A stretch of DNA of 64,000 nt from an uncultured Chloroflexia bacterium (GTDB lineage: Bacteria > Chloroflexota > Limnocylindria > Limnocylindrales > CSP1-4). Below the pieces are notes generated by a model. That model did not search any database and was not told the DNA's origin. It was given only the letters and a program-made list of their open reading frames with translations. The position numbers and the translations under genes are program-made. The stretch is from NCBI GenBank assembly GCA_963813535.1, contig CAWEZH010000002.1, forward strand, positions 1,728,001-1,792,000, written 5' to 3'. Below, in pieces: positions 55,586 through 62,121 of this stretch (within the stretch, counting starts at the first letter, position 1; the number at the start of each line of letters is the position of its first letter).

Positions 55586-57049
55586 CTAGCGGACCCGCCG
55601 GATGACGCGGGAGACGAGGGCGCGAGCCTGCGGCTTGTGCGCGTACGCCCAGCCGATGATGATCAGGATGATGAAGTTGACCGTGCCCACGCCGGCAGCG
55701 TTCAAGTAGCCGAGCTGCTGGCCGATCTCGCCGTCGATCTTGAGCCCCGGGACGGTGGCGCCGAACGGACCGAGCTGGAAGAACGGCGAGGTCGGTGAGG
55801 TGTTCGACCGCAGGCTCGACGTCAGGATCTCGTCGGCCGACTCGCCGCCGACGAGGACGGCGTTCGGGCCGGTCACGAGGGCGCTGGATCCTGTCAAGCC
55901 ATACGGGAGGTCACTCTGTGGCAGGTGGGTCCACTCGAGGACCGTACCGTCGCTCGTCGGGATCGACCAGAAGACCTCGGGCCGGGGGCCTTCGCTGTCG
56001 GCCCCGCCCATGATGTAGAGCGTCCCGTTGGCGGTGTATCCAGCAGCGTCGTCACGTGCAGCCGGCAGGTTCCACGCGTTGTCGATGTCCCAACCGATGA
56101 CCTTGCCCTGCTCCGGGTTCTCCGGGAAGCCCTCGGGGGCCTCGAGCCCGATCCTGCCGCGCTGGACCGCCCCGACGGGACCGGCTTCGTCATGGCCGCC
56201 ATACAGCCAGATGAAGTCGCCGACGACCGCTCCGAGAGCGTCGGCCTGCGGGCGCGCGAGCGGAGCCTCCACTTCCCACTCACCGAGCGCACCCTGGGCA
56301 TCCAGCGGGCTCTTGTACGTCGTGGTGACCGGGCCGTTCTCGCCTTCCCCGCCGACCACGACCAGGCCGTCGGCCGTAGAGAGCGCCACGGCCTGGGCGA
56401 GCGGTTCGGGCAGGGCCAGATCATCGACCGGCTGCCATTCCCCGAGGACGCTCGTGGCCGGATCGGCGGCGATCGAGAAGACGGTCGTTGTCGGTGCGCC
56501 GTCGGCGTCGTAGCCGCCGATCACGTACACCGTGCCGGACACCGACGTCACGGCTGCATCGCTGCGCGGCTCGGGCAGCTCCGGCCCCGGCTGCCACGTG
56601 TCGAAGTTGCCGGTGCCCGACGTCTGCGCGACATACACCGTGGAGGTGGCGGCCTCGCCGTCCGATCCGCCGATGTACAGGATCTGCGCGCCGAGCTGGA
56701 GCGCCGTCCCGTCGGTCCGCGGTTCGGGCAGTGCGAGCTCGGAGGGGGACGGATGCCATGGCACCAGGGCCCCGCGCGGCGCCGGGCACGGCAGCGTCTC
56801 GTTCTCCGACGAGCAGAGATTGATCGGGGACCAGACGAGCAGACCGAGATCGACGGTCCGGTTCACCGTGAAGTAGTAGGCGCGGTCTGGGAGGTAGCCC
56901 AGCATCAGGAGGATGATGATCAGCCAGACGAACGACTTGAGGCTCGCCCACGCCCAGCCGTCTGCGTCGAGCAACCCGAACATCGCGCGCCGCTTGGGCA
57001 CGACCAGCCCTGGCCCGAGGGCGGGACGCGTGGTCCCTGCGGCGCTCAT
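55586..57049 (-). CDS. Membrane-anchored Kelch-repeat protein
   Basis: N- and C-terminal TM segments and about six Kelch blades (LPEPR...YIGG/VIGG/LYGG/IMGG...W). Confidence 0.85.
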   Translation of the reverse strand: MSAAGTTRPALGPGLVVPKRRAMFGLLDADGWAWASLKSFVWLIIILLMLGYLPDRAYYFTVNRTVDLGLLVWSPINLCSSENETLPCPAPRGALVPWHPSPSELALPEPRTDGTALQLGAQILYIGGSDGEAATSTVYVAQTSGTGNFDTWQPGPELPEPRSDAAVTSVSGTVYVIGGYDADGAPTTTVFSIAADPATSVLGEWQPVDDLALPEPLAQAVALSTADGLVVVGGEGENGPVTTTYKSPLDAQGALGEWEVEAPLARPQADALGAVVGDFIWLYGGHDEAGPVGAVQRGRIGLEAPEGFPENPEQGKVIGWDIDNAWNLPAARDDAAGYTANGTLYIMGGADSEGPRPEVFWSIPTSDGTVLEWTHLPQSDLPYGLTGSSALVTGPNAVLVGGESADEILTSSLRSNTSPTSPFFQLGPFGATVPGLKIDGEIGQQLGYLNAAGVGTVNFIILIIIGWAYAHKPQARALVSRVIRRVR

Positions 57050-58116
57050 CCGGCGGTCAGGGTGCCGGTCATGTTCGGATGGACGGAACAGTTGAACGGG
57101 TAGTCACCGGCGTCGAGCGCGGGCACGGAGTAATCGACCTCGGTCGGGCCAGTGACGATCTCGCCGGTGAACACGCTCGTCCCGCTGCCGTCCTTGATCT
57201 CGACGTTGTGGGGGACACCGTCCTCCGTGTTGGCGAAGTGGATGACAAAGGCCTCGCCGGCCGGTGCGGTCGCTTCCGACTGGTCGAACGCGCTGCTCGA
57301 GCTCGCCGAGATATCGACGACCTGGGCGTTCGGATCGATCGACTGCGCCGGGCCCGGACTCTGGCTGCTGCCGCCGGTCAACTCGTCCGTCCAGCAGTCC
57401 GGGAATGGGGTGGCCCCCGGCTCGGGCAGGTAGTTCGGATCGCGCCACCCGGTGAACGTCAGGACCTTCCCGGTCTGCGGGTCGATCTTCGGGTCGAGCA
57501 GGTGCTCGTCGCGGACGATGTACTCGCGGTCGTTCGTCGCCAGGAGGAACGCGACGAGCTCCTCGACCTGACGATAGTTCAGCGGTCCGGGCGGATTGCC
57601 CTCGTTCGACCAGACGGGCATCTTCGACTTCGGGTCACCACAGACGTACCGACCACCGACGGTCAGCACGTTCCGGATATAGGCCTCGCTCAGGTGGGCG
57701 AAGAGCTTGTCCTGACGGTTCAGGGTCGGCCCCTCCCCGCCCTCGCCGTCCACCCCGTGGCACCGCGCGCAGTTCGCCTGATAGACGTTGTATCCACGCT
57801 CGACTCGTGAGACCTGCTGGGCATCGATCTCCTGGGCCTGTCGGGCCACGGTCAGCCCGCCCGGGGCACCCAGCTCATAGAACCAGTACAGCGAGATGAA
57901 CAGGATGATGACGATGACCGCCAGGAACCCGACCCACCGAGCGTTCGCCGACTGGCGGACGACCTGGGCCGCGCGCTCCGGCGTGAACTCGGTCTTGCGC
58001 ACCGGCGGTGGCGAGGTGAACCGTTCGACGAGCGAGCGATCCTCGGGCGGGCGCACGGCTGGCAGACGCTGCTCGGGCGCGCCTTCCTCCGGCTCCCGTC
58101 CGGGCGTATCGGTCAT
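57046..58116 (-). CDS. Membrane-anchored monoheme cytochrome c fused to cupredoxin
   Basis: TM, CARCH, axial Met candidate KMP, and C-terminal PHNVEI...CSVHPNM. Confidence 0.9.
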   Translation of the reverse strand: MTDTPGREPEEGAPEQRLPAVRPPEDRSLVERFTSPPPVRKTEFTPERAAQVVRQSANARWVGFLAVIVIILFISLYWFYELGAPGGLTVARQAQEIDAQQVSRVERGYNVYQANCARCHGVDGEGGEGPTLNRQDKLFAHLSEAYIRNVLTVGGRYVCGDPKSKMPVWSNEGNPPGPLNYRQVEELVAFLLATNDREYIVRDEHLLDPKIDPQTGKVLTFTGWRDPNYLPEPGATPFPDCWTDELTGGSSQSPGPAQSIDPNAQVVDISASSSSAFDQSEATAPAGEAFVIHFANTEDGVPHNVEIKDGSGTSVFTGEIVTGPTEVDYSVPALDAGDYPFNCSVHPNMTGTLTAG

Positions 58117-60289: not shown

Positions 60290-62121
60290 CGGGCTCCTCC
60301 TGCCACGCCGGGGGTCCCGGCCAGCTGCGCATCCCGGTACGACTCCTTGTAGAGCCGACCGTCGGTCGAGATCTCCTGCAACTCGAACCGCTCCATCGTA
60401 ATGGCGTCGAACGGGCAGCGCTTGACGCAGAGTGCGCAGCGGATGCAGCGCTCCTCATCGAGGATCATCGCCCCGCCGTTCTCCCAGCCGTAGGCCTCGT
60501 CGAGCTCCGGGAGGAGGCCCTCCGACTTGAGCGTATTGATGTCGACCATGTGGATGACGCCCTCGGGACAGACATCCGCGCAGGCGCCGCACAGGACGCA
60601 GCGGAACGGGTCGAACCAGATGTTGTAGTTGCACATCAGGCAGCGCGTCGACTCGGCGACGGCGCCCGTCGCGTCGTACCCGAGCTCGACCGGCGTGTTG
60701 AAGTTGACGATCGGGTCGGTCGACGGCATGCGCGCCTGAAGCGGGACCATCGGGATGTGCTGGCGTGGCAGTACGTCGTACAGCTCCGGCATGTCATGGC
60801 GCCACGAGCTCGTGACCTTCACGTTGGCGGCCACACTGACGTCCGCCCGGCCGGCGAGGTAGCGGTCGATGGCATAGGCCGCCTTCTTGCCGTGGCCGGC
60901 GGCCTCGATCAGGGTCGTGGGTCCGGTCACGAAGTCGCCGCAGGCGAAGACGCCCCGGACGTTCGTCGCGTATGTGGCGGGGTCGACCTTCACGCGGCCG
61001 CGGTTGATCTCGAAGCTCGCCTCGACCGGAAGGAACGTGAGGTCGGCCGCCTGCGACACGGCTGGGATGACGGTCTGGGCGGCAACGACGAACTCCGACC
61101 CCTCGATGGGGATCGGCGACCGACGTCCCGAGGCGTCGGGCTCGCCCAGCCGGTTGCGGATGAAGCGGACGCCCGTGACCTTGCCGTCCTCACCGAGGAC
61201 CTCGATCGGGCTGGCGAGGAACTCCATGCGAACGCCCTCGCGCTCGGTCTCACCGAGCTCCTCCTCGTCGACGACCAGCTCGGAGCGCGTGCGTCGATAG
61301 GCGATGGTGACGTTCTCGGCACCGTGCCGAAGGCTGGTCCGCGAGCAGTCCATCGCGGTGTAGCCACCGCCGATGACGACGACGTCGTTGCCGACTTCGA
61401 TCGGTTGACCGAGGTTCGCCCGCTTCATGAAGTCGACGCCGTAGTCGACACCCTCGAGGTCGGCGCCCGGGATGTCGAGAGCGACCGCGTCCATGGCGCC
61501 GGCCGTGATGGCGATCGCGTCGAAGTCGCGCTGCAGCTCCTCGAACGGAAGGTCCGGCCCGACCGACGTGTCGTAGACGAACGTGACGCCGAGCCGCTCG
61601 ACCAGCCGGACGTCCATCTCGATGGCCTCGCGCGGCAGCCGGAACGCGGGGACGCCGATGAGCATGGTCCCGCCGCCATACGGAAGGCTGTCGAAGACCG
61701 TGCACCGATAGCCCTTCACTGCGAGCTCGCGCGCGACGGCGAGTCCCGCCGGGCCGGCGCCCACGATCGCGACGCGCTCCTCGCGCGGCGTGATGTCGGG
61801 CATGACGTCCGGGATGCCCGATGCCTCGTGCCACTCGACGAGGAACCGCTTCATGGCCCGGATGGCGAGCGGCCGATCGATATCACCGCGGCGACATGCC
61901 CGCTCGCACGGGGCCGAACAGACGTACGAGCACATCGCCGCGACCGGGTTCGGCTCGCGCGACAGGATGTACCCCTCCTCGAACCGCCCCTCGGCGGCGA
62001 GATTGAGGTAGCCGCGGCAGTTGGTGCCGACCGGACACGCTTCCTGGCACTCGATGTTGCACTGCAACCAGGAGGCGTCGACAGGCTGGACGAGGAATTC
62101 CTGGGCGGGATCGATTGCCAA
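60286..62121 (-). CDS. GltD/NfnB-like FAD- and Fe-S-containing NAD(P) oxidoreductase with C-terminal 2x[4Fe-4S] domain
   Basis: CQEACP, CSYVCSAPCERACRR, GAGPAG, IGGGYTAMD, AYRRT, RCLMC, CVLCGACADVCP and CIRCALCVKRCP. TTG start with GAAAGG RBS. Confidence 0.92.
   Translation of the reverse strand: MAIDPAQEFLVQPVDASWLQCNIECQEACPVGTNCRGYLNLAAEGRFEEGYILSREPNPVAAMCSYVCSAPCERACRRGDIDRPLAIRAMKRFLVEWHEASGIPDVMPDITPREERVAIVGAGPAGLAVARELAVKGYRCTVFDSLPYGGGTMLIGVPAFRLPREAIEMDVRLVERLGVTFVYDTSVGPDLPFEELQRDFDAIAITAGAMDAVALDIPGADLEGVDYGVDFMKRANLGQPIEVGNDVVVIGGGYTAMDCSRTSLRHGAENVTIAYRRTRSELVVDEEELGETEREGVRMEFLASPIEVLGEDGKVTGVRFIRNRLGEPDASGRRSPIPIEGSEFVVAAQTVIPAVSQAADLTFLPVEASFEINRGRVKVDPATYATNVRGVFACGDFVTGPTTLIEAAGHGKKAAYAIDRYLAGRADVSVAANVKVTSSWRHDMPELYDVLPRQHIPMVPLQARMPSTDPIVNFNTPVELGYDATGAVAESTRCLMCNYNIWFDPFRCVLCGACADVCPEGVIHMVDINTLKSEGLLPELDEAYGWENGGAMILDEERCIRCALCVKRCPFDAITMERFELQEISTDGRLYKESYRDAQLAGTPGVAGGAR

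Follow-up and report, generated by a model that had tools for sequence, protein, structure and literature searches.

We describe here a six-gene operon on the reverse strand of contig CAWEZH010000002.1, from an uncultured Chloroflexia bacterium of the class Limnocylindria. The window that we analyzed is a stretch of 64,000 nucleotides (nt) of this contig, in which the operon spans positions 55586 to 62121 (coordinates refer to the window unless stated otherwise). The operon most likely encodes the organism's only complex-III-type enzyme, a b6c-type Rieske/cytochrome b quinol oxidase, and this enzyme is most likely an aerobic variant of the complexes of anammox planctomycetes, with NADP(H) wired to the hemes on the negative side of the membrane through an iron-sulfur (Fe-S) flavoprotein. 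On the reading that we favor, to which we assign as a whole a probability of roughly 0.45, this anammox-type enzyme would pass a low-potential electron to NADP+. The parts of this reading differ in strength: it is highly probable that the flavoprotein is a bound subunit of the complex, and reasonably probable that NADP(H) exchanges electrons with the b hemes; net reduction of NADP+ is a more tentative proposal.

The genes run in the order flavoprotein, cytochrome b6-type subunit, subunit IV, Rieske protein, cytochrome c-cupredoxin fusion, and Kelch protein, and every element of the gene order, strand, and coordinates proposed in a first-pass annotation of this DNA was recovered. This kind of operon is itself already known, and Dibrova 2017 (cited from an excerpt) has reported the general association of such flavoproteins with cytochrome b genes, both for anammox planctomycetes and for "many other cases." Our literature search found no paper describing the operon in Limnocylindria or Acidobacteriota. 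The new points are its apparent status as the one complex III present in an aerobic class, the module of a cytochrome c-cupredoxin and a Kelch protein, a putative switch between NADP and NAD from one phylum to another, and the persistence of the flavoprotein link in enzymes that seem to have no heme cn.

Proteins encoded by the operon

The flavoprotein (60286-62121, reverse strand; 611 amino acids [aa], TTG start) is predicted to be cytoplasmic and contains the Pfam domains Fer4_20, Pyr_redox_2, and two copies of Fer4. A two-cluster domain of the GltD/NfnB type at its N terminus is followed by Rossmann domains for flavin adenine dinucleotide (FAD) and NADP(H) and, at residues 508 to 569, by the additional C-terminal 2x[4Fe-4S] ferredoxin domain that the first-pass annotation had recognized. 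(A longer open reading frame [ORF] with a GTG start, 60286-62253, was considered as the true gene and rejected, given that the proteins of relatives begin at the TTG matching position 62121.) Sixteen cysteines, namely, C25, C29, C64, C68, C72, C76, C494, and C497, plus the CxxCxxCxxxC motifs at 508 to 518 and 559 to 569, appear to be placed for four Fe-S clusters; 15 of these do not vary across 38/38 relatives, and the exception, C64, is present in 31 and replaced by Leu in the other 7, including Brocadia. The Leu of Brocadia fits the model of the anammox flavoprotein, in which a cluster with three Cys ligands lies next to the FAD (PMC12954380, cited here and below from excerpts). The RCLxC segment that supplies C494 and C497 lies C-terminal to the flavin domain, as it does in NfnA and StnC chains, whereas NfnB and GltD carry a similar segment at the N terminus instead.

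Preference for NADP(H), previously proposed from the YRR that follows the second Rossmann motif, gains support from the comparison of orthologues. The YRR occupies residues 275 to 277, after a beta-strand (270 to 275) of the second Rossmann fold and past the second GxGxxG, in an AlphaFold2 model (predicted local distance difference test score, 86), and it is shared with the NADP(H)-binding chains of NfnB, NfnI, and StnC. All nine orthologues examined from Acidobacteriota have C-L-E at this position, where an acidic residue is the usual sign of a preference for NAD(H). This pattern is that of a specificity switch and supports NADP(H) as the substrate of the flavoprotein described here, and the flavoproteins of Acidobacteriota are predicted to be of the NAD(H) type.

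The best matches to the flavoprotein among solved structures are NfnABC, StnABC, and NfnB (E values of 1e-106 to 1e-77 by sequence and of 1e-50 to 1e-39 by Foldseek). All NCBIfam models of the GltD type score below their cut-offs: TIGR01317 with 198.7 versus 447.7, TIGR01318 with 262.3 versus 482.95, and TIGR01316 with 325.4 versus 471.75. Fusions of the flavoprotein to its presumed partners were sought among 150 cluster representatives, none of which matched cytochrome b, subunit IV, or the Rieske protein; a Pfam scan of nine representatives (eight of them longer than the window protein) returned extensions that are NapH-like, of the response-regulator type, or unassigned, and no cytochrome b.

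The stop codon of the flavoprotein gene (TGA, 60288-60286) overlaps the start codon of the cytochrome b gene (GTG, 60289-60287), so that the GTGA reported in the first-pass annotation can be read directly in the DNA. The cytochrome b6-type subunit (59561-60289, reverse strand; 242 aa; Pfam Cytochrome_B, 158.9 bits) has the four His heme ligands of a b6-type cytochrome b (H112/H126 and H213/H228, spaced 13 and 14 residues apart) as well as, at Cys61, the Cys of the CxGG motif (here CLGG) for heme ci/cn. Solved cytochrome b6 chains are its best matches in the PDB, but they align only from residue 59 on (E value, 1e-51). The 58 N-terminal residues outside this alignment form an extension on the negative side that is nevertheless conserved: S19, R22, R32, N39, F41, and H43 are invariant in 25/25 flavoprotein-linked cytochromes b from three phyla. 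In the same set, the columns of the C-terminal Arg233 and Lys234 are likewise invariant. Among NCBIfam models, the protein just passes cytb_ExtP (293.3 bits versus a cut-off of 290) and fails PRK03735, a b6 model (213.5 versus 325).

The conserved residues of the extension acquire a possible role from an AlphaFold3 model of the anammox complex, in which an extra heme b sits at the center of the dimer with His62 of Kustd1481 as its ligand and with its propionates at Arg266/Lys267 and at an Arg of the flavoprotein (PMC12954380). When the cytochrome b of Brocadia is numbered from its ATG (275 aa), its invariant His falls at 62 and its C-terminal Arg-Lys at 266/267, that is, at the published numbers. 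Mapped through this orthologue, His43 and Arg233/Lys234 appear to correspond to His62 and Arg266/Lys267 of Kustd1481, and His43 is predicted, by analogy, to be a ligand of an extra heme b.

Subunit IV (58836-59441, reverse strand; 201 aa; Pfam Cytochrom_B_C) departs from the canonical PEWY sequence at the Qo site: the motif is A-P-W-Y, with P-W-Y invariant and the Glu of PEWY absent in 25/25 sequences. Glu69, in helix E, is conserved as Glu in 17/17 sequences paired with a CxGG cytochrome b and in 2/8 of those paired with one lacking that Cys, and we regard it as a candidate axial ligand of heme cn. By b6f residue numbering, it would match the Glu ligand of a low-potential heme cn.

Some relatives also carry an orphan second cytochrome b6 gene that is 85 to 90% identical to the operon copy (genomes G124, G095, and G098, at L117:6001-6780, in L118, and at L119:6007-6735, respectively). 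No gene for subunit IV, the Rieske protein, or the flavoprotein lies near these orphans, and the neighboring ORFs look hemerythrin-like by eye.

The Rieske [2Fe-2S] protein (58156-58830, reverse strand; 224 aa; Pfam Rieske) has a twin-arginine-like signal, the cluster boxes CPHLGC and CPCHGS, and the residues Ser159 and Tyr161. Its best PDB matches are 9rk4, which is Kuste4569, and 9rk3, which is Kustd1480 (E values of 7e-12 and 6e-10, versus 2e-5 for the bc1 Rieske protein); the potentials of these two anammox proteins were measured as +303 and +335 mV (PMC12954380). Ser159 and Tyr161 match the high-potential Rieske signature given in the same source, and the protein is predicted to be of high potential. 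The cytochrome c-cupredoxin fusion (57046-58116, reverse strand; Pfam Cytochrom_C and Cupredoxin_1) is membrane anchored, with a single heme motif (CARCH, at 116) and a type-1 copper site (H303, C343, H346, and M349), and it is the likely acceptor of electrons from the Rieske protein. The Kelch beta-propeller protein (55586-57049, reverse strand; 487 aa; Pfam Kelch families) has a hydrophobic segment at each end and could serve either as an additional subunit or in assembly of the complex. Its gene overlaps that of the cytochrome c by 4 nt and is translationally coupled to it, and a Kelch homologue follows the cytochrome c gene in at least seven Limnocylindria loci, including one in a genome of about 1.1 Mb.

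Association of the flavoprotein with cytochrome b across genomes

Among 29 relatives from two families, the cytochrome b gene directly follows the flavoprotein gene in 27 of the 29 loci, and the remaining two loci stop at the end of a contig; a gene order so regular is not due to chance. One of these families consists of streamlined genomes of 1.0 to 1.4 Mb, in which the pairing is kept. We then drew an even sample of 151 Limnocylindria genomes (flavoprotein threshold, E ≤ 1e-120), of which 130 have the flavoprotein and 138 have the cytochrome b. Of the 130 genomes with the flavoprotein, 123 have the cytochrome b gene downstream of it, in the same orientation and on the same contig, the other 7 having the two genes split over contigs or matches that were not listed; in 22 genomes of the class, the two genes share a base, as they do in the operon described here. 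Both genes are missing together from 11 genomes of two genera, which are 91 to 95% complete. These tallies include five unpublished genomes, plus two more in the count for cytochrome b; with all seven set aside, the flavoprotein is present in 125/144 genomes, the cytochrome b in 131/144, and the two are adjacent in 120/125.

Outside Limnocylindria, the nearest cluster representatives are 50% and then about 42% identical to the flavoprotein, one of them coming from Nitrospinae. A scan across phyla, with an alignment of eight sequences as the query and one genome per species, gave 80 loci, which are a sample drawn from at least 599 stretches and not a census. In at least 24 of the 80 loci listed, cytochrome b is adjacent (at least 14 in Limnocylindria, at least 9 in Acidobacteriota, and at least 1 in Brocadia sapporoensis); the flanks of the other 56 contain no cytochrome b at an E value of 1e-4. 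The linkage noted in the first-pass annotation therefore holds in 123/130 genomes of the class and extends to two further phyla, where the genes are arranged differently: in nine loci from Acidobacteriota, the order is flavoprotein-Rieske-cytochrome b-subunit IV-octaheme cytochrome c, and in Brocadia sapporoensis, Rieske, cytochrome b, and the flavoprotein come first and are followed, further along, by subunit IV and the octaheme cytochrome c.

The kinship with the anammox subunit that had been surmised from the sequence is seen both in identity and in phylogeny. The flavoprotein shares 39% identity with its counterpart in the Rieske/cytochrome b cluster of Brocadia sapporoensis, and in a tree of 90 rows (quick IQ-TREE, LG+G4; four truncated rows dropped), all 24 cytochrome b-linked flavoproteins, that of Brocadia included, fall inside one 43-row clade with a Shimodaira-Hasegawa-like approximate likelihood ratio test (SH-aLRT) value of 98. 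Seven members of this clade have no cytochrome b nearby.

Respiratory context and direction of electron flow

Near-identical proteins that carry an organism name are from Candidatus Limnocylindrales (Chloroflexota). A search of the host genome (3.28 Mb in three contigs, 92.9% complete) found one cytochrome b and one COX1, the latter in the window at 19285-20952, where it bears out the O2 reductase assumed for this organism; the same search found no cytochrome bd, no NrfD-type protein, and no [NiFe]-hydrogenase large subunit. With one cytochrome b, one COX1, and neither cytochrome bd nor an NrfD-type protein, the enzyme of this operon seems to be the sole path by which electrons of quinol reach the oxidase. 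COX2 (18094-19275, forward strand) and a CoxIV-like protein (21822-22901, forward strand) each have a C-terminal cupredoxin domain, in keeping with the one fused to the operon's cytochrome c, which suggests that copper domains transfer electrons between the bc-type complex and the oxidase. On another contig, between nuoI and nuoJ, lies a 1,313-aa fusion of NuoF FMN, NADH_4Fe-4S, 2Fe-2S, GltD-like, and ferredoxin domains (C3:917946-921887, reverse strand), which its domains mark as a probable Nfn/Stn-like head, of the NADPH type, in the complex I operon; similar matches occur in relatives, those with genomes of about 1.1 Mb included, so that the flavoprotein operon and the NADPH-type module of complex I are conserved together even in genomes of this size. 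As to the quinone, among 41 genomes of the class that are at least 90% complete, MqnA/D passes its cut-off in none and MenB in 8. Genomes of the class without a recognized menaquinone pathway still have complex I, the bc-type complex, and the oxidase.

The mechanism that we favor would divide the electrons of quinol at the Qo site. High-potential electrons would pass from the Rieske protein to the cytochrome c-cupredoxin and on to the aa3-type oxidase. The flavoprotein would dock on the cytochrome b6/subunit IV dimer from the negative side, with its last ferredoxin-type cluster at the contact, and its FAD and a wire of four Fe-S clusters would there connect the NADP(H) pool with hemes bL, bH, and cn (and perhaps with an extra heme b between the monomers, on His43). 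With a reduced quinone pool, bifurcation at the Qo site would yield a low-potential electron that travels along the Fe-S wire to FAD and then to NADP+. Quinone would still be reduced at the Qi site in the ordinary way, with the flavoprotein as a parallel side branch: because the enzyme is the only complex III found, and because the C-terminal Arg-Lys and the heme cn Cys are kept, a working Qi site is to be expected. A prediction of the complex from alignments of cytochrome b, subunit IV (residues 1 to 160), and the flavoprotein (residues 10 to 605) scored 0.15 (mark, 0.32) and counts neither for nor against the docking.

Several observations weigh against net NADP+ reduction, or against a dedicated tie between the flavoprotein and the cytochrome b complex. 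By an estimate from standard potentials, an O2-linked chain working under a membrane potential has only a marginal driving force for lifting an electron to -320 mV on the negative side. The host has a PntB transhydrogenase and could obtain NADPH otherwise, and a complex I with its own NADPH-type module fits NADPH as a donor to respiration and not as its product. MenD, MenB, MqnA/D, and MqnC all fall below cut-off in the genome, so that any argument from a low-potential quinone is an assumption. In the linked cytochromes b of Acidobacteriota, Y-L-G-[STA] replaces CxGG, and the flavoprotein link there persists without the Cys of heme cn, so that heme cn is not required for it. On the flavoprotein tree, linkage to cytochrome b takes at least three gains or losses, and three members of the clade from Pseudomonadota lie directly upstream of genes for a 2-oxoacid:ferredoxin oxidoreductase (POR, POR_N, and TPP_enzyme_C), from which the family appears to serve other partners too. 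Given these Pseudomonadota neighbors, the family is a portable NAD(P)H/Fe-S module that became attached to cytochrome b complexes, possibly more than once.

The same facts can be arranged into other explanations, of which the most serious has a bound flavoprotein working only downhill, from NADPH through the Fe-S wire to heme bH/cn and on to Qi-site quinone. In that case, the complex itself would serve as an NADPH:quinone or NADPH:cytochrome c reductase that pumps no protons, resembling the FNR-b6f arrangement proposed for cyclic electron flow, for which the co-purification of FNR with b6f offers a precedent (cited in PMC5600118, itself used here in excerpt). Such a reaction is downhill in all conditions on textbook thermodynamics, with no charge crossing the membrane; NADPH is suggested to be a major respiratory donor by the module in complex I; PntB is present; and the Qi-side residues and the Cys of heme cn are retained. 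It would, however, repeat a proton-pumping NADPH route at lower yield and yet be kept in genomes of 1.0 to 1.4 Mb, the same ground on which the authors of PMC12954380, in the portion cited, argue against this direction in anammox bacteria, and the Rieske protein resembles the high-potential ones of that group. We lean toward NADP+ reduction on account of the anammox-like Rieske protein of the high-potential type, the Glu-type heme cn site, and the retention of the operon in streamlined genomes that have an NADPH-type complex I; the marginal energetics on an energized membrane, PntB as a source of NADPH, and a quinone without a recognized pathway make NADPH input a close competitor all the same, if a somewhat unlikely one in absolute terms.

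It is improbable that the flavoprotein is no subunit at all but is simply co-transcribed, acting in the cytoplasm to oxidize NADPH for GltB or as a reductase of the NADPH:ferredoxin type for other enzymes. The window does contain a four-domain GltB (39360-43925, reverse strand) that has no gltD beside it (an ammonium-transporter-like ORF, identified by eye, adjoins it at 44064-45311), the genome has no free-standing GltD, its only other GltD-like sequence being the fusion in the nuo operon, and the relatives in Pseudomonadota show the flavoprotein family next to a 2-oxoacid:ferredoxin oxidoreductase. Yet gltB is not adjacent but 16 kb from the flavoprotein gene, which scores below every curated GltD cut-off, and the C-terminal dicluster domain has no counterpart in the solved structures of GltD and NfnB, which align only as far as about residues 425 to 432. 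The partnership with GltB named in the first-pass annotation as a way for its proposal to fail is thus unlikely, and nothing points to the other, separate transcription, the stop and start codons of the two genes being overlapped. The adjacency in 123/130 genomes, the joint loss in 11, and the recurrence of the pairing in three phyla with different gene orders speak against mere co-transcription as well, as does the reported co-migration of the anammox homologues with their complexes (de Almeida 2016, cited in PMC5600118 and PMC12954380). We give even less credence to a role in redox sensing or protection, with no bulk flux, in which the flavoprotein would poise or sense the negative-side hemes against NADPH/NADP+, for example, to limit the formation of superoxide at the Qo site. 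Such a role would agree with the small energetic margin for NADP+ reduction and with the other routes to NADPH, but four clusters and a FAD are typical of proteins of catalytic transfer (NfnB, GltD, and StnC), and a Pfam scan of the flavoprotein found no regulatory domain.

Operon DNA and relation to known systems

The six genes are taken as one unit because the flanking genes on both sides sit on the opposite strand. Besides the overlaps already described, the gaps between genes are of 5 nt and 39 nt, plus a spacer of 119 nt (59442-59560) between the cytochrome b and subunit IV genes. This spacer is a copy of a small dispersed palindromic repeat and does not belong to the ancestral operon: about 10 partial copies, 84 to 96% identical, occur elsewhere in the genome, and a hairpin of -52.5 kcal/mol is predicted for it. 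In several relatives, the gap between the two genes is 6 nt or less, and a spacer of similar length occurs in some genomes of the genus and not in others. Upstream of the flavoprotein gene, on the operon's side of a divergent neighbor, the non-coding region 62122-62364 is presumed to be the promoter region of the operon; a scan for consensus elements returned no promoter-like site and two terminator-like sites, with no excess over shuffled sequences. The divergent neighbor itself (62365-63999, forward strand) runs past the end of the window, encodes more than 545 aa, is Ala/Arg-rich with an N-terminal hydrophobic segment, and has no Pfam match. Short contigs from two soil sequencing runs cover parts of the operon, and two of these contigs span gene junctions: one of 198 nt, with one mismatch, covers the flavoprotein/cytochrome b junction (60182-60379), and the other covers the cytochrome c/Kelch junction (56965-57150). 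These runs are labeled metatranscriptomic, their RNA nature being a guess, and a contig across two genes is not the same as a single transcript; as such, neither is used as support here.

The closest known systems are the anammox complexes encoded by Kustd1480-1485 and Kuste4569-4574 ("subfamily G" of Dibrova), which have a Rieske protein, a split b6 with CxGG, a subunit IV, and a GltD-like protein with four clusters, the Kuenenia flavoproteins being Kustd1483 and Kuste4570 (PMC12954380). The system described here differs in its host, which is an aerobe with this as the sole cytochrome b found, and in its gene order, with the flavoprotein first and translationally coupled. The Cys residues of the cluster proximal to the FAD also differ, all four being present here, versus a Leu at the C64 position in Brocadia. 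On the positive side, where an HAO-like protein is described in the anammox complex (PMC12954380) and where the loci of Brocadia and Acidobacteriota encode an octaheme cytochrome c, the operon has no multiheme partner but a monoheme cytochrome c-cupredoxin and a Kelch protein.

Other relatives share parts of the assembly. The cytochrome b6f complexes and the b6c menaquinol:cytochrome c reductases of Firmicutes are alike in the four-helix b6, the four His, the CxGG Cys, and a separate subunit IV, but there the 58-residue extension, A-P-W-Y in place of PEWY, and the added flavoprotein set the present complex apart, and the operon has no cytochrome f. NfnABC/StnABC (9bov, 9n5u, and 8oh5) and NfnB (4ylf and 5jca) have the fold and the YRR motif of the NADPH site in common with the flavoprotein, whereas the operon has no gene for a NuoE/NuoF-like or NfnA-like partner, there is no formate-dehydrogenase-like domain, and a membrane cytochrome b seems to take the partner's place. 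GltD resembles the flavoprotein in its N-terminal two-cluster domain and in its FAD and NADPH domains and differs in lacking the extra C-terminal 2x[4Fe-4S] domain; the flavoprotein gene, moreover, is not beside gltB. The ExtP/ExtQ proteins (NF040969 and NF040970; "selenite/tellurite reduction operon") are approached by the cytochrome b, which just passes the ExtP model, but not by subunit IV (54.8 versus an ExtQ cut-off of 150), and the operon is respiratory in its make-up.

Anammox bacteria are slow-growing anaerobes with three Rieske/cytochrome b complexes, and the question raised with the proposal made for them is whether a Rieske/cytochrome b complex can make NAD(P)H by bifurcation at the Qo site. 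One extension of that proposal, which we consider a long shot, is that an NADPH loop replaces or accompanies the Q cycle in Limnocylindria: the low-potential electron of complex III would go to NADP+, and the Nfn/Stn-like complex I would reoxidize the NADPH while pumping protons. If so, every second electron would pass through complex I again, and more protons would be moved per electron reaching O2. Whichever way the electrons run, Limnocylindria are a widespread aerobic class of soil and freshwater, and their putative flavoprotein-bearing complex III, with its simple acceptor module, would offer a simpler system in which to ask the question, while the Acidobacteriota, a phylum with cultured aerobic members, would offer a natural comparison of NADP with NAD and of enzymes with and without heme cn. 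Three predictions follow at the level of sequence: that His43 is a ligand of an extra heme, that Glu69 is a ligand of heme cn, and that the Rieske protein is of high potential.

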